A DNA stretch of 64,000 bases, from positions 8,542 to 72,541 of the forward strand of contig CAZAOU010000001.1 of NCBI GenBank assembly GCA_964487135.1, given 5' to 3'. The notes below the pieces were generated by a model, which saw nothing but the letters and a program-made list of their open reading frames with translations, did not search any database and had not been told where the DNA came from. Shown here one piece after another: positions 5,064 to 60,344 of this stretch; the stretch's first letter is position 1; every line of letters begins with the position of its first letter. The position numbers and the translations under genes are program-made. This DNA is from an uncultured Candidatus Saccharibacteria bacterium (GTDB lineage: Bacteria > Patescibacteriota > Minisyncoccia > Phycocordibacterales > CAIRYW01).

Positions 5064-5561
5064 TTATTCAGTAAAATCGAAATTTATTGTCGGAGGAAGA
5101 ATAACTGTTGTTCCTGGAATTGTTGGTGTTGTGCCTGTTGCGTTAGTTACAGGTATCTCGTTTACACTTATTCCTGTATTTTGTCCCGAAATTTGAAAGC
5201 CTGTAATAGTTGTATTATTGGTTGAATTTTGTGAATTGTCGTTAATTGTTATTGGAGTGTTTGAAATAACGACACTACAGCTTTTGTTTTTTATAGATTC
5301 TCTGGTTTTTTTGTCCACCATTACAGAATTTCCAAGCCTATTATTTTTTTTAAAATTTGAAACAGCTACAGCGGTGTTTAGGTCAAATACTCCATTTATT
5401 CTAGAACCTAAAAATTTTTGAAGTTTTGTAACCTCACCTTTTGTTTTTTTGTCGCTAGTTCCGAGATTTAGATTATTTTTTAAGTCAGTGCAGGCAGCAA
5501 AAGAGGTTGCAGGTGCAAGCAAAACGAGTGTAAAAGCCAAAGATAATATTCTATTTTTCAT
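5064..5561 (-). CDS. secreted protein with a putative peptidoglycan-binding domain
   Basis: signal peptide MKNRILSLAFTLVLLAPATSFA; segment VTKLQKFLGSRINGVFDLNTAVAVSNFKKNNRL resembles a PG_binding_1 repeat. Confidence 0.45.
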   Translation of the reverse strand: MKNRILSLAFTLVLLAPATSFAACTDLKNNLNLGTSDKKTKGEVTKLQKFLGSRINGVFDLNTAVAVSNFKKNNRLGNSVMVDKKTRESIKNKSCSVVISNTPITINDNSQNSTNNTTITGFQISGQNTGISVNEIPVTNATGTTPTIPGTTVILPPTINFDFTE

Positions 5562-5584
5562 GTGTGCAATTATATCAAATTTAC

Positions 5585-5613
5585 TTGAAAAGTCAATATT
5601 ATTGTGCTATGGT
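5585..5613 (+). promoter_or_regulatory. sigma70-like promoter TTGAAA-17-TATGGT placed for a near-leaderless transcript of the 5622 ORF
   Basis: -35 at 5585-5590, 17-nt spacer, -10 at 5608-5613, ATG at 5622. Confidence 0.4.
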
Positions 5614-5621
5614 TTTGGGCG

Positions 5622-6044
5622 ATGCAAACAAAGCTCATTCAGCTCGTGATCGTGCTCGTCGCGATCTTCGCCCCTCTCTCTGGCCTCAATGCCCAGGAGG
5701 TGGAAAAACCAAAATCAACCCCACCCGTGAATCTTCTCAAGGACTCTGTCTCTGAGACAATACCTATCAGTGTTCTGTCTGAGGATGCCAACGGGTATGT
5801 CGTTCGTGAGATTTTTGTCATGCAAGGAAAGAGGTTGGCAGTTGTCCAGCGAATCGGTGTAATGAGCATCGATTTTTCGAGAAATAGTGTCTCGATTTCT
5901 CAGCTCGGCGAATGCCTCGTGGTCAAGGTTCCTTGGGGTATACCCGAAGAAGGCGAAAAAAAATTTACCGGCTTCATTAAGAAGGAAGGTGGAAAGATCG
6001 GAATGCTCTATCCGATTACAGGTGAAGTAACTTTCTACGAGTAG
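5622..6044 (+). CDS. secreted hypothetical protein encoded in GC-richer island A
   Basis: signal peptide MQTKLIQLVIVLVAIFAPLSGLNAQ; GC-rich codons unlike flanking genes; the track ORF begins at GTG 5604. Confidence 0.45.
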   Translation: MQTKLIQLVIVLVAIFAPLSGLNAQEVEKPKSTPPVNLLKDSVSETIPISVLSEDANGYVVREIFVMQGKRLAVVQRIGVMSIDFSRNSVSISQLGECLVVKVPWGIPEEGEKKFTGFIKKEGGKIGMLYPITGEVTFYE

Positions 6045-6048
6045 TTCC

Positions 6049-6071
6049 TCGGCTTCATGCCGATTTTTTTA
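6049..6071 (+). terminator. rho-independent terminator (cggc-ttcat-gccg followed by T7)
   Basis: hairpin immediately after stop codon 6042-6044, followed by a T-run. Confidence 0.4.
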
Positions 6072-6671
6072 TACAAAATTTTTTAAAACTTCAAAATCTT
6101 TTTTAAGAGTTTCTTTAAGGTGTTGGTTGTAGATTGCAGCGGCAGGATGATAAAAAGGAATTATTTTTATCTTTCCATAATTAGTGTTTGCTTCGTATTG
6201 TTTTCCGTGTGCAACAGAGATAGGTTCTATATCTAAAAACAGTCCAAATTTTTCCATGATGTATTGCATAGAAAATCTGCCTAATGTCGCAATAATTTTT
6301 GGTTGAATTATTTCTATTTGTTTATCTAAAAACGGTCCGTAAGAGGATATTTCTGTAGGGCTTGGATCACGATTTTCTGGGGGTCTGTCTTTTACAATAT
6401 TTGTTACATATACATCTTCTCGTTTTATTCCTGCATGTGCTAAAAGTTCATCTAAAAATTTTCCTGATGCGCCACAAAAAGGTTTTCCATTTTTAGCTTC
6501 GTTTTTGCCGGGAGCTTCGCCGATAAACATTATTTTAGAAAAATGACTTCCCTCGCCTATGACCGGAAAATAATTATTTTCTTTGCGAAATTTATATAAA
6601 GGCAAAAATTCTGCCACCAAAAGTTCATCGCGAATTTTTTTTAGTTCATTAAATCGCTCGTCTTTATTCAT
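6069..6671 (-). CDS. uracil-DNA glycosylase, family 4
   Basis: motifs FIGEAPGKNEAKNGKPFCGASGKFLDELL and HPAAAIYN are typical of the UDG family 4 / SPO1 pol-related group. Confidence 0.8.
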   Translation of the reverse strand: MNKDERFNELKKIRDELLVAEFLPLYKFRKENNYFPVIGEGSHFSKIMFIGEAPGKNEAKNGKPFCGASGKFLDELLAHAGIKREDVYVTNIVKDRPPENRDPSPTEISSYGPFLDKQIEIIQPKIIATLGRFSMQYIMEKFGLFLDIEPISVAHGKQYEANTNYGKIKIIPFYHPAAAIYNQHLKETLKKDFEVLKNFV

Positions 6672-7748: not shown

Positions 7749-8028
7749 GTTTTTTTTCTTGCAAAATAATCTGCTGTTTGTCTTTTCCTAGAAGACCGTT
7801 ATATTTTCCAATTTTTCCATTCCCTAGAATTACTCGGTGACACGGAATATTTTTGTCGGCATTATTTTTCATAATATTTCCAACGACTCTAAAGGCTTTT
7901 GGATTTTCGGCCTTCATTGCTACTTCTTTGTATGAAAGGGTTTTTCCTTTTGGAATTTTTGCAACAACTTTTAAAACTCTAGCCTTAAAAGAGTTTTCCT
8001 GGTTTTGGTTCTTTATTTTTTTTCTCAT
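7720..8028 (-). CDS. ogt: methylated-DNA--protein-cysteine methyltransferase (single-domain Ogt/MGMT-like)
   Basis: active-site motif IPCHRVI plus helix-turn-helix LSYKEVAMKAENPKAFRVVGNIMKNN; start taken at the internal MRKKIK; the longer ORF would overlap the upstream gene by 110 nt. Confidence 0.7.
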   Translation of the reverse strand: MRKKIKNQNQENSFKARVLKVVAKIPKGKTLSYKEVAMKAENPKAFRVVGNIMKNNADKNIPCHRVILGNGKIGKYNGLLGKDKQQIILQEKKHENNLTAKR

Positions 8029-8803
8029 CAATTTTTGCCTTAAAAATATTTTGTATTGATTTTCCAGCAAATTCTCTATATGCACAGAACTCACAACCTT
8101 CTCCAGATGCAGGCAATTCTTCGCTATCTAAGCAATTTTTTATATTTAAAAGAGTATCTTCTATCCAGTCTATCTTACCTTTATGTGCAATAAGAGTGAC
8201 GTCAAATTCTAATTTTCCGTCAAAAGCCTCCCTATCTGTTTGGCCGTTTACATAAACAAAATATCCTGTGTCGCTTACTTCAAAACCTTTTTGTCGCAGA
8301 AGCCACTGATAGATTTCCATCTGTCTTTGATACTGGTTTTGCCATTTTGTATCGCCCAAAGAATCCATTTTTCCGTCTTTGGCTGTGGCTTTGTAGTCAA
8401 CGACAATTAAATTATCATTTTTATCAATCCAAACATCATCAATCGCTCCGGTTATGAGCATGCCGGTCTTTTCATATTTATATTGAATTCCAACAAAATT
8501 TTCTCGCCATTTTTCTATTTCTTCATGATCAAACGGAACTGCATCAACTTTGTATTTTTGCATAAGAGGATGCTGGCTGTGTTTAGCTCGATGAATGTCA
8601 AATTCTTTTTTTAAGAGCGCATCAACAGCAATATTTAAAGTAAAAGCTGGACCTCTTGGACGAGACACTCCTAGTTTATTATCAAGATAAAAACATCTAG
8701 GACATTCCATAAAAAGGTCAATTTTCGATCTTGAGAGTTTCCAATTACTTCCGCCGTAATTCCAGTTAGCTCCTCTTATTTTTGGTTTTGATTCGTAGGC
8801 CAT
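7985..8803 (-). CDS. PD-(D/E)XK nuclease superfamily protein, Cas4/RecB-like, with a 4-Cys cluster
   Basis: nuclease core GAIDDVWIDKNDNLIVVDYKATAK (D...D-Y-K); N-terminal CPRC and C-terminal CEFC cysteines as in Cas4/AddB iron-sulfur nucleases; no CRISPR nearby. Confidence 0.5.
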   Translation of the reverse strand: MAYESKPKIRGANWNYGGSNWKLSRSKIDLFMECPRCFYLDNKLGVSRPRGPAFTLNIAVDALLKKEFDIHRAKHSQHPLMQKYKVDAVPFDHEEIEKWRENFVGIQYKYEKTGMLITGAIDDVWIDKNDNLIVVDYKATAKDGKMDSLGDTKWQNQYQRQMEIYQWLLRQKGFEVSDTGYFVYVNGQTDREAFDGKLEFDVTLIAHKGKIDWIEDTLLNIKNCLDSEELPASGEGCEFCAYREFAGKSIQNIFKAKIDEKKNKEPKPGKLF

Positions 8804-8809
8804 TGGGCT

Positions 8810-9898
8810 CTATTCTATCACGCCACCACCGAGGCAAACATCCTTGTCGTAAATAACAATTGACTGTCCGGAAGCAGAAGTTTGAGGCGTTTCAAAAGTA
8901 ACAAGCCATTTTGAACTCACCTTTTTTAATTTAACTTTTTGAAGTTTTTGGTGATACCTAATCTGAGCAGTATATATTTTATTTTCTTTTGGTTCTTCAT
9001 TAATCCAGTTTATCTTATCAATTAAAATTTCTTTTGATATATATTTTGATGTTTTGTTTAAGTTAGATTCATTACCAACAGTAATTGTGTTGTTTGTTAT
9101 ATCTTTTGAAATAACATAAAGACGCTCATCATTTGGACTTTTTTTGGTTACCGTAAAGCCATGTCTTTCACCTATTGTATAAAAAATGGCTCCGTCATGA
9201 TGACCAATTTCTTCGCCGTCAGAGTTGAACACTTTTCCAGATTTCGATTTTATCTGTTCTTTAAGAAATTTTTTCATATCAATATCGCCCAAAAAACAAA
9301 TTCCCTGACTATCTTTTTTTTCTGCGTTTGGAAGTTTTATTTTTTTAGCTATTTTTCTCACTTCAGATTTCTGTAAGTTTCCTATTGGAAATAGTATGTT
9401 TTTTAATTGCTCCTGAGTAAGAGTCCACAAAAAGTAACTTTGCTCCTTTTCTTTATCATCGGCTTTGCATAAAAAATATTGCCTGTTTTTTTCTATATTC
9501 TGCGCATAATGTCCCGTAGCAACAAAATCTGTCCCCATTTCTTTTGCCTTTTTAAGAAAACCTCCAAATTTTATTTCTTTATTGCACATTACATCTGGGT
9601 TTGGTGTTCTTCCAGCTTTATATTCTGAAATCATATAATCCGCGACATTTTTTTTGTATTCTTTTTCTAAATCAATTGTTACAAAAGGAATTTCTAAATG
9701 AGCCGCAACTCTCATAGCATCTCTCCTCTCCTCTTTCCAAGTACAAGGATATCCTTCAGGCATCCAAGTTTTTATAAAAGCCCCAACTACTTTGTAGCCA
9801 GCTTTTTTTAATAAATATGCAGATACAGCTGAATCAACACCTCCAGAGAGGCCAACAAAAACTGTTTTACTGCAGATATTTTCTTTTATTGGAAACAT
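8810..9898 (-). CDS. mnmA: tRNA-specific 2-thiouridylase MnmA
   Basis: PP-loop VFVGLSGGVDSAVSAYLL; C-terminal MnmA-like region; start chosen at MFPIKEN. Confidence 0.85.
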   Translation of the reverse strand: MFPIKENICSKTVFVGLSGGVDSAVSAYLLKKAGYKVVGAFIKTWMPEGYPCTWKEERRDAMRVAAHLEIPFVTIDLEKEYKKNVADYMISEYKAGRTPNPDVMCNKEIKFGGFLKKAKEMGTDFVATGHYAQNIEKNRQYFLCKADDKEKEQSYFLWTLTQEQLKNILFPIGNLQKSEVRKIAKKIKLPNAEKKDSQGICFLGDIDMKKFLKEQIKSKSGKVFNSDGEEIGHHDGAIFYTIGERHGFTVTKKSPNDERLYVISKDITNNTITVGNESNLNKTSKYISKEILIDKINWINEEPKENKIYTAQIRYHQKLQKVKLKKVSSKWLVTFETPQTSASGQSIVIYDKDVCLGGGVIE

Positions 9899-10841
9899 GT
9901 TCATCATGTGTCTTTGCATAATGCACGCTTCCATCCTTATCTGTCAAGAAATATAAATATGGAGTCCCAGTGCTTAAGAATAAAGCCTTATAGGAAGCGT
10001 CTAAAGCATCTTCTCCAGGATTTGAAATTGGAGTTGGAGGCAAGCCTTTTCTTGTGTAAGTGTTGTAAGGGGAGTCAGTTCTTAAGTCACTAACACTTAG
10101 GGTAAAAGAATTTCCACCTCTTTCGTATACCAAAGTAGAATCTGCTTGAAGAGGCATTCCAATTTTCATTCTTTTTACAAAAATTTCAGCAACTATCTCC
10201 TTGTCTTCTTTTCCTCTAACTTCTCTTTCTACAATTGACGCTAATTTTACAACATCATTTTTTTTATCATCGGGTAATGCGTGTATAAGTTCATTTTTTG
10301 ATGCAAATGTATCGGTAAAAAGTTTTATTATGTCTTCTTCGGTTTGATTGGGTCTTATTAAATAAGTATCAGGAAAAAGATACCCTTCCATTTTTTTTGT
10401 TTTTTCTAGAAAAATTTGCTCATCAAAATAGCTAAGATTTTTATTTAAGGCGGACGCAATCTGTTTTCTAGTAAAACCCTCGGGAATTGTAATTTTGGCA
10501 CTAACAATCCCGTACTCCCCTTTTCTTAGCCTTTTAATTACAGAAAATAAGCTTTCTTTTTTAGAGAAAAGATAGGGACCTTCAACAATATGACCTCCTA
10601 GGATTTTTTCGCTTATATAAAATAAGTTTTCTGAGTAAATAAGGTTTTTTGATTTTAAAGTATTTCCAACCTCCTTTGCACTTTGACCTTTTTTTATCAC
10701 AACGGTCGTTTTTTCTGAAAATGATTTAGGAACAAAAAAGATAATACAAACAGAAAATAATATAATTAAAAAAAATAAACCTAAAAAAATTAACTTGCAA
10801 GACCACTTTTTTGGTTGCTCTAAGATAATATCTTCTTGCAT
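9867..10841 (-). CDS. mltG: endolytic murein transglycosylase MltG/YceG family
   Basis: N-terminal TM helix; YceG motifs ...YLFPDTY... and SPYNTYTRKGLPPTPISNPGEDALDA. Confidence 0.8.
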   Translation of the reverse strand: MQEDIILEQPKKWSCKLIFLGLFFLIILFSVCIIFFVPKSFSEKTTVVIKKGQSAKEVGNTLKSKNLIYSENLFYISEKILGGHIVEGPYLFSKKESLFSVIKRLRKGEYGIVSAKITIPEGFTRKQIASALNKNLSYFDEQIFLEKTKKMEGYLFPDTYLIRPNQTEEDIIKLFTDTFASKNELIHALPDDKKNDVVKLASIVEREVRGKEDKEIVAEIFVKRMKIGMPLQADSTLVYERGGNSFTLSVSDLRTDSPYNTYTRKGLPPTPISNPGEDALDASYKALFLSTGTPYLYFLTDKDGSVHYAKTHDEHVSNKRKYLQ

Positions 10842-10846
10842 ATTTT

Positions 10847-12070
10847 TTAGATAGGAAGATTTGCTGGAGGTTCAGATTTTTTAGCCTCGATTCGTCCGAT
10901 TGTTGGGGTTTTAGCTACTTCTCCTGGGAAGTGATAAATAGTTGCTAATCCTTCTGTACTCATTGTAAAGAAATGTCCTGGATTAGGCTTATGAAAGAAT
11001 TCTCTTTCTCCGTAGGCATGAATAGTGTGCTCTTTTCTTCCAAGTAATCTTTTTCCAGTAAAATCTTGCCAAGGATAATCAAAACTTGTGGCGTGATCCG
11101 CTTCAAAACTATTTAGGTTGGCTGAGTTGTATTGTCTAAATGCTCCATTTAGTCCTGCAACATTTATCTCATTAAATTTATCTAGAGGAGCAAAATACAG
11201 CGCTCTAATACCAACATCAAAAGGAATTTTAGATATGTTGTGTTGAATGGCATCAATTATTTCTCTGTCGCCTTTAGAAAGACTAAAACCCTCAAGTTTT
11301 ACATCACCAATCGCACTCGTATCTTGCCCTTTAAGTTTTTTAATTTCTTCATTTGCTGCATATGTCCAGTCTACTTTTTCAAACCAAGTTCCGGGTTTTG
11401 TTTGTTCTTTTTTATGAGCTCTAATTAATATTTGTATCCAAGCTTGCTCACCTTCTCTTAAAGATCCCAAATATTCAAGAATGGGGGTCATTGGGTCAAC
11501 TTTTAGTTCCTCGTCAGGGTCTTTGTCGAGTTTGTATTTTTCATAGGTAAGAATCGGATAATGGCTTGCTTTTGAGAGTTTAAAATTACATCCCCACAAA
11601 TCCATATTGTGATGGTTAAAATGAACTTTAGATGTGTAGTCTTCGACTTCTTTTATTTCTATATCAGGAAATTGAGCGTACAGTTGCGACACGACTAAAT
11701 GTTTCCAAAATTTCCAGCACCAAATATAAAATCTAATGTTTCCTCCGTCAGAAATTAGTTCTAGAGAAAACCATGGGCGAACTTTTCCATATAAATATCT
11801 GTTTATCCACGTGCCCTCACCTTTTGTCTGATAAAGGGAAGTCAAAAATAATTCCATTGCCAAAGGAGATTTTGGAAATATTCTAGGTAACTTTATTTCT
11901 AGTACAACTTTTTCCTGAGCATGGATAAATTGTTGTCTTCGCAAAGTTACGAATGATTCAAAAAAGAACCACGCCAAAATAATTGGTGCACAAATAATAA
12001 CAAGCACCCAAGCAAAGCCCAGACCGTTTGTAAAAACATCGTTAAAGGGACTAAAAAAACTCGCTTCCAT
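10847..12070 (-). CDS. hypothetical membrane protein
   Basis: 407 aa; N-terminal TM helix (FAWVLVIICAPIILAWFFF); no recognisable motif. Confidence 0.35.
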   Translation of the reverse strand: MEASFFSPFNDVFTNGLGFAWVLVIICAPIILAWFFFESFVTLRRQQFIHAQEKVVLEIKLPRIFPKSPLAMELFLTSLYQTKGEGTWINRYLYGKVRPWFSLELISDGGNIRFYIWCWKFWKHLVVSQLYAQFPDIEIKEVEDYTSKVHFNHHNMDLWGCNFKLSKASHYPILTYEKYKLDKDPDEELKVDPMTPILEYLGSLREGEQAWIQILIRAHKKEQTKPGTWFEKVDWTYAANEEIKKLKGQDTSAIGDVKLEGFSLSKGDREIIDAIQHNISKIPFDVGIRALYFAPLDKFNEINVAGLNGAFRQYNSANLNSFEADHATSFDYPWQDFTGKRLLGRKEHTIHAYGEREFFHKPNPGHFFTMSTEGLATIYHFPGEVAKTPTIGRIEAKKSEPPANLPI

Positions 12071-17781: not shown

Positions 17782-17879
17782 GAGGTTTACAATATAGCAA
17801 ATAAGTGTTTGTATTACTAATGATTATGAAAAGAACCTTTATTTTGGTCACTTTTTTCGTCGTATGGCAAAAGAAAGAT

Positions 17880-18180
17880 GTCCAAAAAATTCCAAAGTCA
17901 AGGAGACCAAGAGTTGGAAGGCGATACATCCAGCACGCATTCCAATGCGAATCAGAGCTGGACCTTACCCAGGTCCCCTACCTCATGAAAATCTTGCGTG
18001 AGCTAGAGTCTTCTGAAGGCGAATCGTCCACAAGACTCGAGGGAGTGAGACTCATAAGGGCTAAGAACCCTCCACGCGAATGCCTCGGCATTTTCTGGAG
18101 CAGTCAGCTACCCCGACTCATGGACAAAGTCCATGAACTCAATCGACGCGGAGTCGAACTAGACTTCAAAAAATAATTTT
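17880..18180 (+). other. GC-rich structured island B, a candidate ncRNA or foreign small ORF; identity unresolved
   Basis: about 300 nt of clearly higher GC than the flanks; perfect internal hairpin catggac-aaa-gtccatg; gcgaat occurs three times; ends at an intrinsic terminator; the overlapping 123-aa ORF has no SD and an implausible composition. Confidence 0.25.
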
Positions 18181-18206
18181 AGGCCCGGTGGCCTATTTTT
18201 TATTTC
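18166..18206. terminator. bidirectional rho-independent terminator (aggcc-cggt-ggcct with T-runs on both strands)
   Basis: GC hairpin 18181-18194 followed by attttttat on the + strand; the reverse complement is followed by aaaattatttttt after the stop of the 18200 minus-strand gene. Confidence 0.5.
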
Positions 18207-21636: not shown

Positions 21637-21677
21637 TTTTTTGACAAATTAACAAAACTGTGTGAAAATTTAGATCT

Positions 21678-21902
21678 ATGGTTCATTTCACCGATCAACT
21701 CCCCTCCGGTATTCCCCTTACCGGCAACAGCAAAGTCATTCCTCGCTCCACTGCTCCCGGATATTTCCGTGGACTTGGTGCTGGAGGTCTTCCGGAAAAC
21801 CCTACGCCACTTGACAAAAGAGCTGTCAGGAGTGGCGACTACATTTGCATTGCCTCAGACTGCGGTGGTAATGCCGGAATGGAAGTTTTCCAAGTAGTCT
21901 GA
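21678..21902 (+). CDS. hypothetical small protein in GC-rich island C
   Basis: 74 aa GC-rich ORF; preceded by TTGACA (21641-21646)-17-TGTGAAAAT placed for a leaderless start. Confidence 0.25.
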   Translation: MVHFTDQLPSGIPLTGNSKVIPRSTAPGYFRGLGAGGLPENPTPLDKRAVRSGDYICIASDCGGNAGMEVFQVV

Positions 21903-21974
21903 GACGACGCGGGGTCATTAGATGGTTGTCAAGCTTCTGCTTTCTAAATACTGAGAGTGGAGCTATTTTTTTAC

Positions 21975-28786: not shown

Positions 28787-30157
<1,371 letters not shown>

Positions 30158-34807: not shown

Positions 34808-35018
34808 ACAACAAAAAAAACCGCCCGTCCAAAGCAGTTTCAAAATTTATTTTGCTATAAAAATTATTAGCAAAATATTTTCCTGCTCGGGATAATAAAG
34901 ATTTTCTAAAGATCGGACTTGTTTTGCTAAATTGCAAACTTTACCGTTGCGGCACAGCGGAGGAATCAAACCTCACTTCCATAGAAAACCTATTTACGAA
35001 TCAATGAACAATAATACT

Positions 35019-36965: not shown

Positions 36966-36988
36966 ATAGAGGTTAGATAAAAAAATGC

Positions 36989-37024
36989 GCGCCAGCCGGA
37001 CTTGCGTTCGGCTGGCGCTTTTTT
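36989..37024. terminator. GC-rich bidirectional intrinsic terminator (gcgccagccg-10 nt-cggctggcgc, T6)
   Basis: 10-bp perfect stem followed by tttttt on + and attttttta on the reverse complement; marks the left edge of GC-rich island D. Confidence 0.55.
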
Positions 37025-37046
37025 ACATAGGCGATTTTGGTTGGTC

Positions 37047-38159
37047 TTAACCCCGACGATCCTTCCCGAGGAACACGACTCTCGGGCAAACCACTGTGGG
37101 ATTCTGGAAGTAAACGTTCGGCTGAATTAGCGCGTCCGTTGCATCTTTCCAGATCCAGTTTTGCGGTGAAAACTTCATCGTAACCGTCGGCGGATTCTTC
37201 AGGTTGTAGTAGCTGAAGGTTCCAGTAATTCCGAAGGATGTTACCCCTTCTTCGTAGTAGAGTTTTACCCCAGGAAACGTCACCTTGATACGATCGCCGG
37301 CGAGTTTAAACTGGGGCTTCACAGGTTTTGTTCCGGGAATAATTACCCCGTTACTGTCGGTAATCGCGACGTTAGTCAGCCCACTGAGGAGCTTCGAGTC
37401 GGCGACACTGAACCACAACTCAAACTCCATGTTCTCGCTGTGCACCTGCATATTCTCAACATTGACGGAAATCACCCCGAGCGTAACTCGGCGACCACCA
37501 ACCTTGAGGTAGTCAACCATCGGCGGAACGATACTTTGCCCTGCCTTGACCTGAACTCTCCCGCGCGGATAGTAGCCTGATACCACAGTGTGATAATTCC
37601 CCACCGTGCTCGCGTTATACATCCACCAGATCTCTGTGTTGTCGTCAGCGTCGAGGTAGTTCAAACTGACTCGAATTGTCTCACCGCCGTGTTGATATGC
37701 ACGACCACCCACGAGTCCGTAGACGACGTAGGATTGGTAAGCACCGTTCGGACGAATGAGATCATCCTGAATCGGCAGGACGAATTCGCCTTGCTGACCG
37801 GAAATAATCGGGAGTCGCCCCACGACTTTTTCTTTGATGTCGTGAACTTCCTGAACCTCGCCGTTTTTGTCGACAACTGCTTTTACGGTGTCATCTTGAG
37901 CGACAGCGACCAGGGCATCGAAAACTTCCGCGGGCCCACTGATGTTGAGGTGGAGAGCCGAGACGTCGCTCGGCCCAGTTCCGATTCCGTGATGAATCCG
38001 GAGAACCTCACCGAGGGTTCCGGGAACGAGATTGGTGCTCGGCAATTGAGCCCCCTCAAGGATTTCGATGTGGACTTTCGCCAACACCTGGTTGGGCGTG
38101 GCGATTAGGGCGAAGATCGTCGCGAAGGCGACGATCATAACAGACTTCAGTTGCTTCAT
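37047..38159 (-). CDS. secreted hypothetical protein of GC-rich island D
   Basis: GC-rich codons; signal peptide MKQLKSVMIVAFATIFALIATPNQVLA (start at 38159; the longer ORF runs to 38231); beta-rich, no known motif. Confidence 0.45.
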   Translation of the reverse strand: MKQLKSVMIVAFATIFALIATPNQVLAKVHIEILEGAQLPSTNLVPGTLGEVLRIHHGIGTGPSDVSALHLNISGPAEVFDALVAVAQDDTVKAVVDKNGEVQEVHDIKEKVVGRLPIISGQQGEFVLPIQDDLIRPNGAYQSYVVYGLVGGRAYQHGGETIRVSLNYLDADDNTEIWWMYNASTVGNYHTVVSGYYPRGRVQVKAGQSIVPPMVDYLKVGGRRVTLGVISVNVENMQVHSENMEFELWFSVADSKLLSGLTNVAITDSNGVIIPGTKPVKPQFKLAGDRIKVTFPGVKLYYEEGVTSFGITGTFSYYNLKNPPTVTMKFSPQNWIWKDATDALIQPNVYFQNPTVVCPRVVFLGKDRRG

Positions 38160-38377
38160 AGGAAAAACCGGCTTGTTAGCCGGCGTAGTTTTTTTTGCTT
38201 TGGGTTTTTCGTTTAACCTAAGGCTGTCCATTCGCAGGCAACAAGCTTTCGCTTATGCTTTTGTAAAGTACAACAAAAAACTGCCATTCAGCAGTTTTCC
38301 TAGGTTGTTGCGATTATAGCATACTTTTATAAATATGTAAATACTTAACTCTCCAACCCTTAGGTTAATTAAAATAA

Positions 38378-38406
38378 TTGACAAAACCTAATATAAATTT
38401 TATAGT
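38378..38406 (+). promoter_or_regulatory. near-consensus sigma70 promoter TTGACA-17-TATAGT in the AT-rich divergent spacer of island D
   Basis: -35 at 38378-38383, exact 17-nt spacer, -10 at 38401-38406; drives the 38514 gene. Confidence 0.5.
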
Positions 38407-38513
38407 ACACAAACGTTCTTTCCAGATTAAGACCAAAAGCCGAGTGGCCAAGGTTATCATCCTGCAAAGACCAAACAAGACCGAAAACAAACAGAAACCA
38501 CCGTATCAACCGT

Positions 38514-39095
38514 ATGAAAAACCTCACTGCCCTCGTCGCCCAATTTCCGGTCGCCGAGTTCAAATCACCAACAAACAAAGTCCAAGAAGGCGAAACCGTC
38601 CTCGGGGTTCTCCCCGACGATCTCAAACGTCTCTGGGGCTTCCTCCAGTCGCTTCGAGAGAAGCACAAACCTGAACTGAAGCGTCTCTCCGATGAGCACA
38701 TGAAACTGAACGCGGCCTTCTTGGCCGACCACATGACCGGAAGTCTCGACAAATCGGGCAAGCACAACCACGCGGCTTGCGAAGCCAGGCAACGCGAAAT
38801 CATGGACCTCGCAACCCAATACAAGGGCCTTACCGACGAGATCGACGCGATCGCGCGCATCTTCTGGGACTCGGTGCGTGTGGAGTTCAACGCCTTTGAC
38901 GCCGACCAGATCGGTCTCCGTGAGAAGGGTCAAGTCGTCGCCATGAAGAGCAAGAAATACGAGACGATCGAATTCGAGGGAAATTTCGCCGACCTCGGCG
39001 AACTACTCGAAACCATCAGTCGCGGTTTCCGCACGCCTCCGCGTCGCGGTCGTCGCACGGGCTTCTTCAGTCAAATCTTCGGCAACGGTCACTAG
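38514..39095 (+). CDS. hypothetical protein of GC-rich island D
   Basis: 193 aa GC-rich ORF MKNLTALVAQFPVAEFKS...; no recognisable family. Confidence 0.4.
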   Translation: MKNLTALVAQFPVAEFKSPTNKVQEGETVLGVLPDDLKRLWGFLQSLREKHKPELKRLSDEHMKLNAAFLADHMTGSLDKSGKHNHAACEARQREIMDLATQYKGLTDEIDAIARIFWDSVRVEFNAFDADQIGLREKGQVVAMKSKKYETIEFEGNFADLGELLETISRGFRTPPRRGRRTGFFSQIFGNGH

Positions 39096-39120
39096 ACCGT
39101 CCTCAAGTCTATCTGACATC

Positions 39121-39154
39121 TACCCAAGCCCCTAAAGCTTGGGTAGAATTTTTA
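39121..39154 (+). terminator. intrinsic terminator after the island D gene (tacccaagc-ccctaaa-gcttgggta, then gaattttta)
   Basis: 9-bp stem followed by a T-run 25 nt after the stop. Confidence 0.4.
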
Positions 39155-39170
39155 TACTAAAAAGTATTTA

Positions 39171-47698: not shown

Positions 47699-47704
47699 AT
47701 TGTG

Positions 47705-47713
47705 TGTTATAAT
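47705..47713 (+). promoter_or_regulatory. extended -10 promoter element TGTTATAAT (island E)
   Basis: TGn plus perfect TATAAT at 47708-47713; ATG of the small ORF at 47723, so the mRNA is near-leaderless. Confidence 0.35.
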
Positions 47714-47722
47714 AGCACCCTA

Positions 47723-47989
47723 ATGTCCTTTCCGCCAAATAACCGTCTCATCGTGATTGAATGCCCGAAACAAAAAGCTGCGCTGGACTCACAAATTGTG
47801 AGAGATCTAGCTGATCGTAAGTGGGAACGCTCGGCTCCGAGAGCTCTCATATTGCTAGCAGAGTCAGTTGGAATCACTATTCCAACCCCAACAAGACTTT
47901 CTGCTTTGGACACTCATTCAAGAGCAGAAATTCGCGAATTTCGCCATCAAATTCGAAAACTGGCCCAAGCCCACCTCAGGACTTCCTGA
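47723..47989 (+). CDS. hypothetical 88-aa protein in GC-rich island E between uvrA and uvrC
   Basis: GC-rich ORF MSFPPNNRLIVIECPKQKAALD...; followed by a hairpin (ccacctcagg...cctgacggtgtgg) plus T-run at about 47968-48012. Confidence 0.3.
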   Translation: MSFPPNNRLIVIECPKQKAALDSQIVRDLADRKWERSAPRALILLAESVGITIPTPTRLSALDTHSRAEIREFRHQIRKLAQAHLRTS

Positions 47990-48003
47990 CGGTGTGGCTA
48001 TTT

Positions 48004-50722: not shown

Positions 50723-51640
50723 TTATTCGAATCTTTCTAGAGACCTTAACATTCTCGCCTCTACATCCGATTCTTCCAAAATCTCAACCCAATCATTTAA
50801 AGCGACTAAATCTTCCTCAAGAATACCCGTAGATTTATATTTCAAATCTCTTGGGTTAAGTAGAGGTAAATCTTTAGGTGCCCCTTTTAATTTTTTTAAA
50901 CGAAAAGATCCTAAACACATTCCATCAGTATCAATAAATCCTGGAAAGTATTGCAACTCGATAGTGTCTTTATATTCTTCCATTAATTCACCCCATTTTT
51001 TTAAAATCGAGGAAAATTTTGCTGGAACTTGGACAAACATTACACCCCCTTCATTCAAAATTTGATACCAAATATTAAGAATTTTAGCTACATAATACGG
51101 TTCATCTGGAACAAGCTCAAGTCCTCGTCCCATTCTTTCCATAATTAAATTTGCTTTTTTTCCACCGGTTGCTTCATTTAAAGCATCATAAGTATCTGGT
51201 GAAAGAATATCTCCTTCGATAACTTCATGATTTCTCCTTCCATCGCCACTAAGAAGTTTTCCCATCTTACTTCTATGATCAATCAAAGTTACACCCACAG
51301 TATTTTTAAAAAATCCTGGGGTAAATTCAGAAAAAACCCTTGATCCAGTTCCACCAAACTCCACACCAACAGCTTTTCCTTTTCTTTCAGAAAGTTCAAC
51401 TTCTATATATTCTTTAAGAGAATGTTGAAATTTTTCTGGTAGCACAGGATAAAAAGCTGTTCTAAAACTAACCTGCCTTTCTTCATCTTCATCTAAAGGG
51501 GAATCTTTCCAAGTATAATAATTGTTTTCTATGAGATCTTGTGCGTTCTCTCTAAAACGTTTAACCTGCTCAGCGTTTGCGGCTAATTCCATTTCTCTAT
51601 CTTTACCAGACGGAAAACCTCCTTCATATTGAATAGACAT
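50723..51640 (-). CDS. putative class I SAM-dependent methyltransferase-like protein embedded in the uvr cluster
   Basis: Rossmann-like motif I AVGVEFGGTGSRV, acidic beta2 end VTLID, EGDIL, ANLIMERM; weak. Confidence 0.35.
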   Translation of the reverse strand: MSIQYEGGFPSGKDREMELAANAEQVKRFRENAQDLIENNYYTWKDSPLDEDEERQVSFRTAFYPVLPEKFQHSLKEYIEVELSERKGKAVGVEFGGTGSRVFSEFTPGFFKNTVGVTLIDHRSKMGKLLSGDGRRNHEVIEGDILSPDTYDALNEATGGKKANLIMERMGRGLELVPDEPYYVAKILNIWYQILNEGGVMFVQVPAKFSSILKKWGELMEEYKDTIELQYFPGFIDTDGMCLGSFRLKKLKGAPKDLPLLNPRDLKYKSTGILEEDLVALNDWVEILEESDVEARMLRSLERFE

Positions 51641-53708: not shown

Positions 53709-53798
53709 GAAAACTCACTATATCAAAAAAGAACTATTTAAGCATTAAAAATAGCGCTCAACTCCGTGAGCGCTTGTCCATCTGACTTTTTGCCACCC

Positions 53799-54059
53799 TT
53801 AAGCGGCATTTGGTAAGTCGGTCGTGGTCGTATCAATCCTTGTGATTTCCGCGGATGCCGGATCGTGTTTTTGGAGCCAGTCATAGCTTCCAGAACCAAC
53901 CCAGCCATTTACCACCCTGGAAAAGACAACACCGAACGCTGAGCCGTATTTTGTTAAGGCCCAGCCGGAAACTCCGTCCCGTTTTTCGGCTAGTTGTCCA
54001 CCTTTGTCACTCACAAAGGCCTGATCGAAGACTTGGATCTGTCTTGGTGTGTTGTTCAT
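53799..54059 (-). CDS. hypothetical small protein in GC-rich island F
   Basis: 86 aa from ATG (MNNTPRQIQVF...; the track ORF starts at TTG 54068); GC-rich and Gly/Trp-rich; no family recognised. Confidence 0.3.
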   Translation of the reverse strand: MNNTPRQIQVFDQAFVSDKGGQLAEKRDGVSGWALTKYGSAFGVVFSRVVNGWVGSGSYDWLQKHDPASAEITRIDTTTTDLPNAA

Positions 54060-54122
54060 GATGGTCAACGAACTTTTTGTCTTTTTTTATGGCCCATCCG
54101 CACTCACGGTAGGTCTTTGACA

Positions 54123-54155
54123 AAACGAGCTCCCTAAGTTGAGAGCTCGTTTTTG
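54123..54155. terminator. perfect 11-bp hairpin terminator (aaaacgagctc-10 nt-gagctcgtttt)
   Basis: palindromic arms with T-runs on both strands, about 120 nt downstream of the tgt stop. Confidence 0.45.
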
Positions 54156-54276
54156 ATATCAATTTAGTTAAAAAAGTAGAATATCAAGAACCAACCCTCA
54201 ATAGATTTCCGAGGACTCTTTTCATATATGTTCTTGTAATCCAAAAATTCATATTCTTATTATACCAAACAAAACA

Positions 54277-55940: not shown

Positions 55941-55992
55941 AGTTTATACATTATATCAAAATTACAAATAAAAATAGAGGCGAGATGCCTCT

Positions 55993-56214
55993 TTACCAAC
56001 CTTTTCTGATTCGCGACACACCACAGAGATTGCTTAGTCGACTAATCACATGATCAACCAAAACTTTCTCATATCCCTCATCAAGAAGCTCACGCTCAAT
56101 GTCATCTAGTCTTGATGAGTCAAGCTTGCCATGATGATTTCTTTCTTTGCGTGATATTGCCAAAGCCATACTTAGAGATTTTACTGAAATCTCTACCGTT
56201 ACGGGATTATCCAT
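55993..56214 (-). CDS. hypothetical 73-aa protein (island G, second gene under the T-box leader)
   Basis: starts at ATG 2 nt after the stop of the upstream ORF (operon-like); MDNPVTVEISVKSLSMALAISRKERN... Confidence 0.3.
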   Translation of the reverse strand: MDNPVTVEISVKSLSMALAISRKERNHHGKLDSSRLDDIERELLDEGYEKVLVDHVISRLSNLCGVSRIRKGW

Positions 56215-56216
56215 AA

Positions 56217-56450
56217 CTATGACCAAGCTCCTGTGTCGTAAGTTAGCTTTACCACTTCCAGATGGGTTCCAACCAAAGTGTGCGCAATTGCTATCACCTT
56301 TCTTCTTGTTCTTGAATCAAGCTCAAGGCGACGTGCAGAACTTTCAATTTGTTCCGACATTTTGGAAGTATTGTTGGTTGGCTTCAGGGTCTCCACAACT
56401 TTGAGAGACAGAGAGACAATCTTGTTTACCTTTTTGGGGTTTAGTTTCAT
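56217..56450 (-). CDS. hypothetical 77-aa protein (island G, first gene under the T-box leader)
   Basis: begins 38 nt after the T-box terminator; ...RKVIAIAHTLVGTHLEVVKLTYDTGAWS; no family recognised. Confidence 0.3.
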   Translation of the reverse strand: MKLNPKKVNKIVSLSLKVVETLKPTNNTSKMSEQIESSARRLELDSRTRRKVIAIAHTLVGTHLEVVKLTYDTGAWS

Positions 56451-56480
56451 GTATTGTTGGTTGTTAAATGTTCAATTGCA

Positions 56481-56805
56481 AAATAAAAAACCGCCCTTAT
56501 ACACCTACAAAAAATGTAAGTGAATAAGGGCGGTTTTCTTTCCGCGGTGCCACCTTAGTTTAGAAACGCAAAATCCGCCAGAGGCGGAAATACATTCCTC
56601 TTTCATCAGCTTTTTTCCGCCTGAGGTCGGACAATACTGATTATCTCTATTACGGGAGAACCCGAATTTTCACGCTCCGCCTAAGCAGATTGCAAAAATC
56701 ATCCTTTTGTCATTTTTTATTTTTTGACAAAAAATCTGGACCCAACCCCGAAAGCTTTTGCCTCGGGATCCAAATGGATTTTTTAAGTTTTAAGGAAGGA
56801 ATCTG
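56481..56805 (-). promoter_or_regulatory. T-box riboswitch leader: promoter, Stem III, T-box sequence, antiterminator and intrinsic terminator
   Basis: minus-strand promoter TTGATT-16-TATAAT (+ coordinates 56812-56841). T-box sequence AACUAAGGUGGCACCGCGG (RC of 56542-56560) against consensus AAUUAGGGUGGNACCGCGG. Canonical antiterminator: A1 UAAGG / 7-nt bulge UGGCACC / A2 GCGG, pairing with CCGC-CCUUA. That CCGC-CCUUA is the 5' arm of the competing terminator AAAACCGCCCUUAU-23 nt-AUAAGGGCGGUUUU followed by a U-run (RC of 56481-56537). Stem III-like hairpin aggcggaaa...tttccgcct lies immediately upstream. Confidence 0.6.
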
Positions 56806-56852
56806 GCATGAATTATATCAAATTTAGCAAAAAAATCAAGTATAAAAAATGC

Positions 56853-56868
56853 GAGGTTTTTTGACCTC
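56853..56868 (-). terminator. hairpin gaggt-tttttg-acctc overlapping the stop codon of the chorismate-mutase-like gene, followed by a U-rich tract
   Basis: stem overlaps TGA at 56867-56869; RC downstream gcattttttatacttgattttttt. Confidence 0.35.
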
Positions 56869-57157
56869 ACTTTGATGCAAACCCCTCCTCTGCATGAACA
56901 GACTCGTCCATAATTGCTTGAAAGATCCTTTCCACCATACTCCAAGGTAATCCCAGACGCTCCGCTTCCTGCTTGAGAAATTCAAGCTTGAGTTTTTCTT
57001 GTTCTTCGTCGCGCATCGGACGATCGTCGGCTCGCTTAATCAAAGCAACTTTTTTAAGAAGAGGAATTCTCGCTTGCCACATTCTTGCCAAATGTTCGAG
57101 AATACCCTGATCAAGCTTGAGGATGAGTTCGCGAGTATCACCGAGTTCAGTTTTCAT
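56867..57157 (-). CDS. chorismate mutase-like protein (AroQ class, 96 aa)
   Basis: helical pattern LRELILKLDQGILEHLARMWQARIPLLKKVALIKRADDRPMRDEEQEKL...VERIFQAIMDESV matches the AroQ LR..I..LD..LL.LL..R.......K......P..D..RE.......ii..S. pattern. Confidence 0.45.
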   Translation of the reverse strand: MKTELGDTRELILKLDQGILEHLARMWQARIPLLKKVALIKRADDRPMRDEEQEKLKLEFLKQEAERLGLPWSMVERIFQAIMDESVHAEEGFASK

Positions 57158-57212
57158 GGTGTTTTATTACACCATATACTCTCAAAAAGAATTTGTCTAG
57201 AGTTTTTATGTC

Positions 57213-57641: not shown

Positions 57642-57642
57642 T

Positions 57643-58872: not shown

Positions 58873-58942
58873 TTTTTCTTTAATTACAGAGAATTATTTT
58901 ACCTTTTTAAATAATTAATGAAAGCCGAGAATACACACACCT

Positions 58943-59048
58943 CTCCCTTAACAACATAATTTTGAGCACGGATATCCTCCTACTGGCAGGATTCCTCGTG
59001 CTCGCGTCGGTCACGCTCGCAAGTCTCAAAATTATGTTGTTAAGGGAG
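58943..59048. repeat. perfect 24-bp inverted repeat with a 58-nt structured spacer
   Basis: ctcccttaacaacataattttgag (58943-58966) and its exact reverse complement (59025-59048); spacer contains its own sub-hairpin ggatatcct...aggattcc. Confidence 0.6.
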
Positions 59049-59147
59049 ACTTATTAGAATTACACACCTATCCTTTGACACCAAAAAATATAGGAGTAGT
59101 CTTTTATATTAAGAAACCCGAAACTCCAAACCAACTCCAAATACACC

Positions 59148-59801
59148 ATGAACATTCAAAACTGGCTGACCGTCCTCGGCTTGCTGTTTGCCGGCACCAT
59201 CGTGCTGGCGTGGCTTAGTGGCTACCACCGGCGGATGAATCTCTATTCGTCCTGCTCGAACGATCCGGACCCTCGCTCAAGATGGATCCACTTCGGATTC
59301 GCGCTCTGCGCCGTCGCGTTCGTCTCAACTGCTCTGGTGGCGCTGAGCCACAGATCGTCCGAGGCAACGACCTTCGAAAAAAAAGTGGAACGCTTGGGGC
59401 TGGCACTCCAAAAAGAGATCCGCCGAGGCGAAAAACTGGAAGCAGAAAACGCTTCGCTCCTGCAGCTGGCAAAAATCAACTTCCTCGCAATCAAGGAGAG
59501 CGAGGTTTTGAGCATTCAAGCTCAGGAGGAGTTGCTCGCGATCATTCGCGACATGCAAGAATCCAAAACTCGTCTGAAAGCTCTGTGCGACTTCCATCAC
59601 AACTCCTACGCCGACCTTTGGCAAAAGAACACCAAGGTCCAAGAGGATCTCAAAGAGGTGATTGATGTCCTGCGGGAACTCCACGAAGAGAACGAGGCAC
59701 TCCACGAGCAAAACGATGCTCTGCGAAACTTCATCACAGGCGATGAGCAGAACATCCCAACAAGGGATCCACTCACAGTCTCCGGGAAAATCAGCCTCTA
59801 G
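59148..59801 (+). CDS. membrane-anchored coiled-coil protein of GC-rich island H
   Basis: TM helix WLTVLGLLFAGTIVLAWL; second hydrophobic segment; long Glu/Leu/Lys heptad region; GC-rich codons. Confidence 0.4.
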   Translation: MNIQNWLTVLGLLFAGTIVLAWLSGYHRRMNLYSSCSNDPDPRSRWIHFGFALCAVAFVSTALVALSHRSSEATTFEKKVERLGLALQKEIRRGEKLEAENASLLQLAKINFLAIKESEVLSIQAQEELLAIIRDMQESKTRLKALCDFHHNSYADLWQKNTKVQEDLKEVIDVLRELHEENEALHEQNDALRNFITGDEQNIPTRDPLTVSGKISL

Positions 59802-59805
59802 CAAC

Positions 59806-59835
59806 GCTCCCAATCAAATGGGGCGATTTTTTTAT
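59806..59835 (+). terminator. intrinsic terminator after the island H gene (cgctcc-caatcaaat-ggggcg, T7)
   Basis: 6-bp stem with a G-U pair, followed by attttttt. Confidence 0.35.
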
Positions 59836-60344
59836 ATTTTTCTACTATCATACGCCCAATGCAAAAGTGCTTGCCTTTGTTTTGTATGACAACTAAAATC
59901 TCCTTTTTTACAATTATTTGTAATTTGAGTAATATGTCTTACCATTGCTTTCCATCTTTTTATTTGCCTTTTATCTTCTTCTGGAATTCTTCTTCCTAAA
60001 TAATACCTACAATACCACCCAAACCATCCCCTTGGATCATCTTTATATATCCATCCTTTTTTCTGCCACACAGAAAGAGGTTGACTTGCATCAACTTTAA
60101 AATAATTAAGATTAATATCTTTTGTTTTTGAAAGCTTTGCTTTTGCTAGCCAACTTTTTGGAAGCTCTTTACTCCTATCATTAAAATAGAGTCCCCCAAA
60201 AATACCAAGTTCAAGCATTTCTTTGGGAGTAAGATCTGGTTTAAATTCAGAATCAAAATTTTTGCCCTCTGGCTCTGTCAAAAAATAAATATAATTTTTC
60301 TGATATTGATCGTTTACAATAATCTTTTGTTTTCTTTTAGACAT
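59832..60344 (-). CDS. conserved hypothetical protein with a Trp/Tyr-rich basic motif (GWFGWYCRYYLGRR...DKRQIKRW)
   Basis: 170 aa; the motif looks like a conserved domain but I cannot assign a family. Confidence 0.35.
   Translation of the reverse strand: MSKRKQKIIVNDQYQKNYIYFLTEPEGKNFDSEFKPDLTPKEMLELGIFGGLYFNDRSKELPKSWLAKAKLSKTKDINLNYFKVDASQPLSVWQKKGWIYKDDPRGWFGWYCRYYLGRRIPEEDKRQIKRWKAMVRHITQITNNCKKGDFSCHTKQRQALLHWAYDSRKI

Follow-up and report, generated by a model that had tools for sequence, protein, structure and literature searches.

Eight GC-rich gene islets, probably acquired independently by horizontal transfer, in a 64-kb stretch of apparent Parcubacteria chromosome

Patescibacteria are known to gain DNA both as single-gene transfers and as islands of up to 13% of genome length, exchanged mostly between Patescibacteria (PMC12455944). 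We analysed a 64-kilobase (kb) stretch of contig CAZAOU010000001.1, hereafter the window, which reads as chromosomal DNA of an AT-rich bacterium of the Parcubacteria (Paceibacterota, candidate phyla radiation) and in which eight GC-rich patches, here called islands, lie between housekeeping genes. The islands are foreign in composition, are absent from the syntenic sites of relatives, have no similarity to one another and carry expression signals of the host's own type. We consider it probable that they are a dense set of independent, horizontally acquired genes and not one coordinated system. In kind, the window is a dense instance of a known phenomenon, the horizontally acquired single-gene islets of Patescibacteria, which likewise are atypical, lineage-specific genes in a conserved and streamlined backbone, mostly of inter-Patescibacteria origin and with many hypothetical products. 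It differs from the described islets in its density (eight sites per 64 kb, together making up about 10% of the sequence, at about four times the rate in related AT-rich loci), in its one- or two-gene units, in the lack of an integrase, phage or tRNA hallmark, and in that all of the islands deviate toward higher GC. In the Parcubacteria, which are reduced episymbionts not yet in culture, accessory genes provide the main clue to host interaction; the window shows gene by gene how novelty may be gained, as tiny self-terminated genes in the junctions of a rigid backbone, under the genome's own leaderless type of promoter.

Two other kinds of system invite comparison. The O-antigen and capsule clusters of enterobacteria are surface-antigen loci of persistently atypical GC, long, multi-gene and usually AT-richer than the genome. 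They share with the present case the occurrence of fast-diverging surface genes at a fixed site with conserved flanks, where composition stays unlike that of the genome from species to species (cf. a family of 370-amino-acid (aa) proteins found near tRNA-Met and tRNA-Asp genes in comparison loci L082 and L083, and a hotspot between uvrA and uvrC, both described below), while the units in the window differ in being single protein genes and GC-richer. Integron cassettes, which are also small, mostly single-open-reading-frame (ORF) units with a hairpin-forming element at one end, were tried as an identity and rejected: the 3' hairpins in the window carry T-runs and lack RYYYAAC/GTTRRRY cores, there is no integrase and no array, and the units have promoters of their own and are dispersed. 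Miniature inverted-repeat transposable elements were set aside on finding neither target-site duplications nor repeated copies, and a phage or plasmid origin after negative results throughout from PHROGs, four IMG/VR scans and tblastn against 50,697 INPHARED phage records and PLSDB plasmids. A defence system was discarded when PADLOC gave no match apart from a weak coiled-coil match of a 217-aa protein, as were structural RNA genes within the islands, for which Rfam gave no match at gathering thresholds and, in a permissive scan (E up to 5), nothing but a T-box-like leader in segment 7.

The initial annotation had singled out eight segments as visibly GC-richer than their surroundings, and this is borne out: the whole window has 35.5% GC, all eight segments have 41-51%, and their 500-nucleotide (nt) flanks have 29-37%. 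The segments and the islands delimited within or around them are as follows.

Segment 1, 5560-6070, 45.2% GC; island 1, 5562..6068, + strand: 140-aa gene (ATG 5622, stop 6044) with an N-terminal signal peptide
Segment 2, 17880-18206, 48.6% GC; island 2, 17782..18199, + strand: 116-118-aa gene (ATG 17820 or 17826, to 18176) with a hydrophobic N-terminus
Segment 3, 21640-21975, 47.0% GC; island 3, 21637..21974, + strand: 74-aa Gly/Pro-rich ORF, 21678-21902
Segment 4, 36985-39160, 51.1% GC, in two parts with a leader
Island 4a, 36966..38159, - strand: gene for a 370-aa secreted all-beta protein (ATG 38159, stop 37047)
Leader of the 370-aa gene, 38157..38311, - strand: promoter and 5' leader of about 150 nt
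Island 4b, 38378..39150, + strand: gene for a 193-aa soluble protein, 38514-39095; terminator 39120-39148
Segment 5, 47700-48012, 46.0% GC; island 5, 47699..48003, + strand: 88-aa ORF, ATG 47723 to 47989
Segment 6, 53790-54160, 48.8% GC; island 6, 53709..54276, - strand: 86-89-aa ORF, 53799-54059/54068, between uvrB and tgt
Segment 7, 55990-57160, 41.1% GC, the weakest of the eight; island 7 (composite), 55941..57212, - strand: chorismate mutase gene, T-box-like leader and two 77-aa ORFs
Segment 8, 58920-59840, 50.1% GC; island 8, 58873..59831, + strand: gene for a 217-aa protein, 59148-59801, with two transmembrane helices and a coiled coil

A 300-nt sliding GC scan recovers all eight segments and one additional high-GC run, at 29201-29900, inside an ATP-synthase-beta-like ORF (28796-30157, named by its position in a row of atp-like genes). 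Since the GC content at third codon positions (GC3) of this ORF is backbone-like, at 0.25, its raw GC comes from amino-acid content and the run is no island. Across the 54 backbone ORFs, GC3 ranges from 0.14 to 0.29 (mean 0.229, standard deviation (SD) 0.028, maximum 0.29), and in the island ORFs it ranges from 0.39 to 0.71, or +5.8 to +17.3 SD relative to the backbone, with no overlap between the two classes. An index like the codon adaptation index (CAI) gives 0.32-0.53 for the islands against 0.687 +/- 0.028 for the backbone. Leucine is encoded in the islands by CTC (56 codons), CTG (22) and CTT (7) and never by TTA, and in the backbone mainly by CTT (520) and TTA (368). The frequency of C at four-fold degenerate sites is 0.24-0.53 in the single-gene cassettes, 0.15-0.24 in the composite island 7 and 0.07-0.12 in the backbone, and on the coding strand C is preferred over G in islands 1, 2, 3 and 4b. 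The amino-acid content of the island proteins is also shifted relative to the backbone, with FYMINK residues down and GARP residues up, and both GC3 and four-fold-site composition are heterogeneous between cassettes. Sliding-window GC and codon usage, which had been proposed as checks, thus set the islands apart; their DNA is compositionally foreign.

A second signature concerns the -35 hexamer TTGACA. In the backbone it occurs 12 times against 43.7 +/- 6.7 expected, a depletion of about 3.6-fold, whereas in the islands it occurs 7 times against 4.1 expected and is not depleted; 7 of the 19 copies in the window thus fall in the approximately 10% of sequence that is island (p = 0.002). This signature is independent of GC and agrees with foreign island DNA, and the depletion suggests that spurious promoters have been purged from native DNA. 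Together, GC3 and the retained TTGACA hexamer offer practical markers of foreign DNA in these genomes.

The frame around the islands is conserved. UvrB (51666-53708) is 72% identical to that of a Parcubacteria metagenome-assembled genome, with best matches that are all Patescibacteria, and UvrA is up to 83% identical to that of a metagenome contig of 34% GC (L086); the gene order FKBP-tgt-uvrB-uvrA-uvrC is kept in dozens of Patescibacteria loci (UvrA, UvrB, Tgt and FKBP being named from homologues and translations). By Pfam, the neighbours of the islands include UDG, YchF, MltG/YceG, PfkB, class II ribonucleotide reductase, UvrC, EamA and glutamate dehydrogenase. The description of the island ORFs as unlike the backbone proteome and placed between housekeeping genes therefore holds, and the comparison with syntenic loci that had been suggested as a check finds two of the sites empty in relatives. 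The tgt-uvrB gap, site of island 6, is 568 nt long in the window and 0-70 nt in L005, L006, L008, L029, L086, L088 and L148; the uvrA-uvrC gap, site of island 5, is 0-30 nt in L001, L091, L097, L105, L113 and L121. The closest relatives with an empty site are L086 for island 6 and L001 for island 5, and the empty-site comparison applies to these two islands, the flanks of sites 7 and 8 not being conserved in the relatives examined. With tblastn, the island proteins have no match among 160 relatives anchored on uvrA or uvrB; against 165 loci, the matches of all island proteins together are confined to the 370-aa family's three loci, themselves retrieved via that family's own homologues, and to the 193-aa loci (L081, an exact Logan copy, and L085). 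Empty sites and a lack of homologues in relatives point to the islands being lineage-specific insertions in a conserved frame.

One of these junctions is variable well beyond the window. In about 40 other Parcubacteria loci the uvrA-uvrC gap measures 200-900 nt and is occupied, on the opposite strand, by unrelated small ORFs, of which many encode membrane proteins (e.g. L087, L088, L109, L110, L135, L137 and L139), which makes this junction a clade-wide hotspot for variable small genes. These small ORFs are often GC3-richer than their AT-rich backbones, and one family among them (fam1) has a GC3 of about 0.6 in backbones of GC3 0.34, 0.46 and 0.58. The hotspot is one of two by-products of the analysis, the other being a candidate attenuator RNA before the gene of the secreted beta-rich protein in three genomes.

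Relatives at 65-68% UvrB identity span 35% to 66% GC. To place the islands among other genomes, ORFs of at least 100 aa with a GC3 more than 0.2 from the median of their locus were counted in comparison loci of Patescibacteria, all anchored on uvrA or uvrB:

AT-rich loci, 436 kb screened: 9 GC3-high and 0 GC3-low outliers
GC-rich loci, 235 kb screened: 1 GC3-high and 6 GC3-low outliers

This symmetry is as predicted by gene exchange between lineages of different GC. The window itself holds 5 outliers in 64 kb against about 1.3 expected (Poisson p ~0.01), about four times the density of the related AT-rich loci.

The expression signals of the islands are those of the host. All of the promoter strings quoted in the initial annotation are present in the window, and the signals directly at the island ORFs include the following.

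Promoter of island 1, 5585-5613: TTGAAA-17-TATGGT
Promoter of island 3, 21641-21669: TTGACA...TGTGAAAAT, read as TTGACA-17-(TG)TGAAAAT
Promoter of island 4b, 38378-38406: TTGACA-17-TATAGT
Extended -10 of island 5, 47705-47713: TGTTATAAT

Promoter-like sites as such are not enriched in the window (58 found against 63 +/- 7 in shuffles). The GC-rich hairpin terminators that had been described, often as bidirectional, are present, and several are indeed bidirectional (18180-18195, 36990-37025 and 54124-54150). The view of the segments as self-contained cassettes stands insofar as each holds one or two ORFs with a terminator; it does not extend to segment 7, which is composite, or to island 5, where the -35 region lies within the uvrC coding sequence (CDS) and the promoter was consequently not imported. 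A leaderless layout, proposed as a cassette trait, turns out not to distinguish the islands: among 39 backbone genes that start with ATG, a strong -10 box ends 3-14 nt ahead of the start codon in 17 (7.5% at random positions), and a Shine-Dalgarno-like 4-mer occurs in only one. From these sequence patterns, leaderless, Shine-Dalgarno-free expression appears to be a habit of the whole genome, which islands 1, 3 and 5 would follow. Islands 4b and 8 have TTGACA-type promoters followed by C/A-rich leaders of about 45-100 nt.

We hypothesize that one or two accessory genes per site were inserted, lineage-specifically, at junctions between conserved housekeeping genes or operons. The donors would most likely be GC-richer members of the same radiation or their mobile gene pool, and entry would probably be by DNA uptake and recombination at insertion-tolerant junctions. 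Each insertion would form its own short transcription unit with a sigma-70-type promoter, placed either directly before the start codon, in the genome's leaderless style, or before a C/A-rich leader devoid of a Shine-Dalgarno sequence, and a GC-rich hairpin terminator would insulate it from its neighbours. The predicted products are mostly small secreted, membrane-anchored or soluble proteins of no known family, together with one chorismate mutase, and they may plausibly serve cell-surface or host-interaction functions of an episymbiont.

The most informative island is the fourth. Island 4a (GC3 0.62), closed by the bidirectional terminator at 36990-37025, encodes a 370-aa protein with two true homologues, P0003 (43% identity) and P0004 (41%), in a full HMMER search of 1.84 billion representatives, and with an additional weak match to PKD repeats. 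Its AlphaFold model is all-beta with a predicted local distance difference test score (pLDDT) of 57, and Foldseek with this model returns generic tandem beta-sandwich adhesin and pilin matches only, at template modelling (TM) scores of 0.1-0.2; on this model the protein would be adhesin-like only in a generic sense. P0004 lies on L083, a 190-kb contig of the candidate phyla radiation type with 41% GC and a backbone GC3 of about 0.28, and has itself a GC3 of 0.66; its gene is part of a three-gene GC-rich island (7898-11188) that also holds a gene of the glutathionylspermidine-synthase family. Two tRNA-Met genes lie on one side of this L083 island and a tRNA-Asp gene on the other; a repeat of the tRNA-Asp 3' end 150 nt downstream (11448-11645) may be an integration scar. 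P0003, on L082, has a GC3 of 0.56, and its flanks, at 42-43% GC, are short and uninformative on the backbone. Synteny between the two loci extends to both sides of the cassette, which two tRNA-Met genes precede and a conserved tRNA-Asp promoter follows. In the window, the cassette stands in another genomic context, from which it follows that the unit has moved at least once; promoter, leader, CDS and terminator are kept as a unit in the two other genomes.

The leader of the 370-aa gene begins from a promoter with -35 TTTACA and the extended -10 TGCTATAAT, and consists in order of hairpin P1 with its U-run, the central stem and, last, a terminator-like hairpin, GCCGGCU-AACA-AGCCGGU + U5 (five or six U over the loci), which ends 2-4 nt before the AUG (3 nt in the window). 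It aligns with L083 9846-10003 and L082 505-672 and is better conserved than the protein. P1 shows compensatory changes over the three loci (CUGC/GCAG, CGCC/GGCG and CCCC/GGGG), and in each of them, as the alignment reveals, the loop and 3' arm of the final hairpin have their complement in the central segment:

Window: central segment GCUUGUUG; loop and 3' arm UAACAAGC
L083: central segment GCUCGGAGC; loop and 3' arm GCUCCAAGC
L082: central segment GCUUGUG; loop and 3' arm CACAAGC

A covariance model of the leader, built from these three loci, gives them scores of 150-162 bits and finds no further copy in the window or in 166 loci (2.4 Mb). With three sequences in hand, the leader is a candidate terminator/antiterminator attenuator. 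It resembles known leaders of this kind (e.g. riboswitches, T-box elements and protein-dependent attenuators) in that its last hairpin and U-run abut the start codon, and it differs from them in matching no Rfam family and in occurring at three loci.

Island 4b has the highest GC3 in the window (0.71) and a 100-nt C/A-rich leader without a Shine-Dalgarno sequence. Its 193-aa gene has an exact copy on Logan contig L081, and its product has a single distant homologue, P0002 on L085 (28% identity, GC3 0.83), whose gene adjoins an AT-rich ORF read from its translation as mscL-like. The -10/start region TATAGTACACA (38395-38411; L085 1-11) is identical before the 193-aa gene and the P0002 gene, and L085 starts exactly there.

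Several observations weigh against simple horizontal transfer as the origin of these genes. No donor lineage was found for any cassette, and no member of the 370-aa or 193-aa family was found in a GC-rich genome, with three homologues known in total; those on L083 and L085 are encoded by GC-rich genes, and the backbones around them are clearly AT-richer. Between L082 and L083 the proteins share only 36% identity at one and the same locus, and the GC of both genes is nevertheless still 52-53%; were the gene vertically inherited there, transfer followed by amelioration should have let the GC excess decay. Islands 4a, 4b and 8 show no sign of amelioration either, their GC3 being at least the value that GC1 predicts. 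No integrase, transposase, tRNA target or direct repeat occurs at any island of the window, the islands being too small to leave room for an integrase ORF in any of them; the homologous cassette of L082 and L083 does adjoin tRNA genes. A pooled search with the eight small ORFs concatenated returned no match and missed the ORFs' own database entries as well, which makes it uninformative. Lastly, the closest relative available is only about 83% identical in UvrA; exact-protein look-ups of backbone and island proteins for other strains found most of them not on record and the organism in one run (SRR11567528). Acquisition by transfer would fit the persistent GC of L082 and L083, the lack of amelioration, the preference for C at four-fold sites and the absence of family members from GC-rich genomes if alleles were replaced by recombination in the conserved flanks, or if the donors are undersampled.

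Some of these points sustain an alternative, which we nevertheless regard as unlikely. Under it, a class of surface and accessory genes of the candidate phyla radiation that evolve fast would be long-term residents of AT-rich genomes or of their common gene pool; their high GC would be kept up through GC-biased gene conversion where recombination is frequent, or through selection on mRNA (stability, structure or slow decoding), instead of dating from a recent import. Of the three homologues known, P0004 and P0002 are the GC-rich genes in AT-richer backbones just mentioned, the diverged L082 and L083 genes are syntenic on both sides, and the small ORFs of the uvrA-uvrC hotspot often exceed the GC3 of AT-rich backbones. 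The preference for C over G at the four-fold sites of islands 1, 2, 3 and 4b also speaks for it, as symmetric mutation pressure does not predict it. On the other hand, the outliers are symmetric, with 6 low ones in the GC-rich loci against 9 high ones in the AT-rich loci, and the fam1 ORF has the composition of its backbone in the GC-rich genome L139. The effects reported for gene conversion in bacteria are far smaller than a GC3 shift of +0.3 to +0.5, which counts against this explanation, as do highly expressed backbone genes without a preference for C at third positions (e.g. the ATP-synthase-beta-like ORF, C 0.07); moreover, the known homologues number only three. If the GC excess is in fact maintained, it bears on what sets gene-level base composition in bacteria. 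A related and quite unlikely possibility is that the islands are a maintained set of host-interaction genes with private leaders, a pattern that would have lasted over long evolutionary times and across species, and in which the leader of the 370-aa gene would represent a new class of riboregulator belonging to that set.

For three of the short patches, islands 3, 5 and 6 (approximately 300-400 nt each), we also weighed whether they are GC-rich structured non-coding RNAs and not protein genes, since GC-rich intergenic regions are a classic sign of structured RNAs in AT-rich genomes. Codon periodicity in their ORFs is weak, with GC1/2/3 of 0.60/0.52/0.44 in island 3, 0.54/0.48/0.39 in island 5 (overall GC 46%, GC3 0.39) and 0.51/0.47/0.52 in island 6 (GC 49%, GC3 0.52), and their RNA folding z-scores are -2.4, -2.9 and -3.5, respectively. 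Island 6 has no clear promoter directly at its ORF, and the window does carry structured leaders in GC-rich patches, namely the T-box-like one and that of the 370-aa gene. These z-scores are modest, however, and include terminator hairpins (for island 6, terminators on both sides, at 53755-53782 and 54124-54150), and none of the three islands matches Rfam even at E up to 5. In islands 3 and 5, moreover, the -10 box lies 8-9 nt before the ATG of the longest ORF, as in leaderless backbone genes, and the junction of island 5 carries clear small protein genes in relatives. The ORFs of islands 3, 5 and 6 are thus probably coding, judging from this arrangement, and we hold the RNA interpretation to be decidedly unlikely.

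The settings of the small single-ORF islands are as follows. Island 1 (45% GC, GC3 0.54, CAI-like index 0.415) lies between a 165-aa ORF (-) and a UDG-family gene (-), with its ATG 8 nt past the -10 box and a terminator hairpin at 6049-6063; its product is a singleton cluster among 15 billion proteins, without a match in Pfam, NCBIfam, PHROG or PADLOC. Island 2 (49% GC, GC3 0.50; C 0.43 and G 0.06 at four-fold sites) adjoins the YchF GTPase gene (-), ends in the bidirectional terminator at 18180-18195 and encodes a product with no family match. Island 3 (47% GC) is flanked by the PfkB kinase gene (+) and by an ORF (-) read from its translation as ribH-like, and its ATG also follows 8 nt past the -10 box. 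Island 5 is placed between uvrC (-) and uvrA (-) on the opposite strand, with the extended -10 listed above 9 nt ahead of its ATG.

The initial annotation had offered two readings of the eight segments, repeated acquisition of small foreign expression cassettes of a shared type, or one dispersed accessory system whose parts share regulation. The first is essentially right, apart from the shared type: the cassettes have no similarity to each other in protein or DNA, and their composition is heterogeneous. The second, for instance a defence or host-interaction regulon, fares badly, and we judge it very unlikely. A common style of strong promoter, short ORF and strong terminator would suit such a system, as would the secreted or membrane nature of about half of the products and the concentration of TTGACA in the islands. 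Against this, there is no shared operator or motif past the generic promoter hexamers, and most TTGACA copies lie outside promoter positions; the boundaries, where shared motifs had been sought, have neither a common motif nor a target-site duplication. Nor do the proteins, mutually unrelated as they are, receive any support from PADLOC or PHROG beyond the one weak coiled-coil match, and the cassettes do not co-occur in any related locus. The T-box-like leader and that of the 370-aa gene also differ from one another, each being private to one cassette. Of all island ORFs compared with Pfam, NCBIfam, PHROGs and PADLOC, none belongs to a family except the chorismate mutase and the protein with the weak coiled-coil match; for islands 1, 2, 3, 5, 6 and 8 this is to be read as no family known, and not as no homologue existing.

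An artefact of assembly or binning, by which pieces of GC-richer organisms would have been joined into a Parcubacteria contig, is hardly credible as the source of the patches: the contig was assembled from a metagenome, of one sample only, and its composition jumps abruptly, but backbone genes in conserved order flank every patch, sixteen chimeric joins would be needed, the joins fall within a few nt of host-style promoters and start codons (the island 5 promoter overlapping the uvrC CDS), and homologous cassettes look alike in unrelated assemblies (L083, the JGI contig; L084, Logan; L085, ENA). Two junctions also recur in separate Logan assemblies of run SRR11567528, where window 38221-40321 is reproduced by L081 with 100% identity, and where EamA, the chorismate mutase, the T-box-like leader and an ORF all lie on L167; this independent reassembly of island/backbone junctions makes a chimeric assembly unlikely.

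Unlike the other segments, segment 7 is no mini-cassette but a regulated small operon (GC 41%, GC3 about 0.4). Its first gene (56867-57157) encodes a 96-aa chorismate mutase of type II (CM_2, PF01817; E 3e-12, 47 bits against a cut-off of 27), the match covering profile positions 2-79 of 80, and all NCBIfam equivalog models score under their cut-offs. The T-box-like leader that follows (56523-56719, -) matches RF00230 with 39.8 bits and E 1.5e-6, short of the gathering score (93). The match includes the T-box/antiterminator core, AAGGUGGCACCGCGG and then a terminator being aligned at model positions ~190-219; stem I is not recognisable, with 87 model positions aligned to 3 nt, and in this and in its sub-threshold score the element differs from known T-box leaders. 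Beyond it lie two overlapping 77-aa ORFs, 56217-56450 and 55993-56226, perhaps a single gene split by a frameshift, followed by a terminator at about 55975-55995. Neither ORF has a PDB or NCBIfam match, and 55993-56226 has no Pfam match.

Island 8 (50% GC, GC3 0.68) has a TTGACA promoter at 59075, followed by a C/A-rich leader, and is closed by a terminator at about 59810-59830. The 217-aa product is a singleton cluster among 15 billion proteins, and its coiled-coil match in PADLOC (E 2.8e-5, 20.6 bits) is its only family match. The 217-aa gene and the glutamate dehydrogenase gene diverge, and the region that separates them contains a 108-nt hairpin with a perfect stem, formed by a 25-base-pair inverted repeat (arms 58942-58966 and 59025-59049, 58-nt spacer; z = -7.3). 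The repeat has no second copy in the window and is absent from the 166 loci; the hairpin might act as an operator or an RNA element, or might be a miniature mobile element.

A 305-aa gene at 50723-51640 (-), between uvrB and uvrA, has a backbone-like GC3 of 0.20 and no tblastn match in the relatives examined, and the uvrB-uvrA gap is 100-300 nt in several relatives (L001, L086 and L005) and 0.8-3 kb in others; this looks like a lineage-specific gene that is not visible by composition.

Outside the islands, Rfam models above threshold identify two tRNA-Ala genes and an adenosylcobalamin (AdoCbl, B12) riboswitch. The latter (34873-35001, -; 54.7 bits against a gathering score of 50) lies upstream of the minus-strand genes 34304-34843 and 32101-34341, and the window also encodes, at 39171-41498, a ribonucleotide reductase of the B12-dependent class II.

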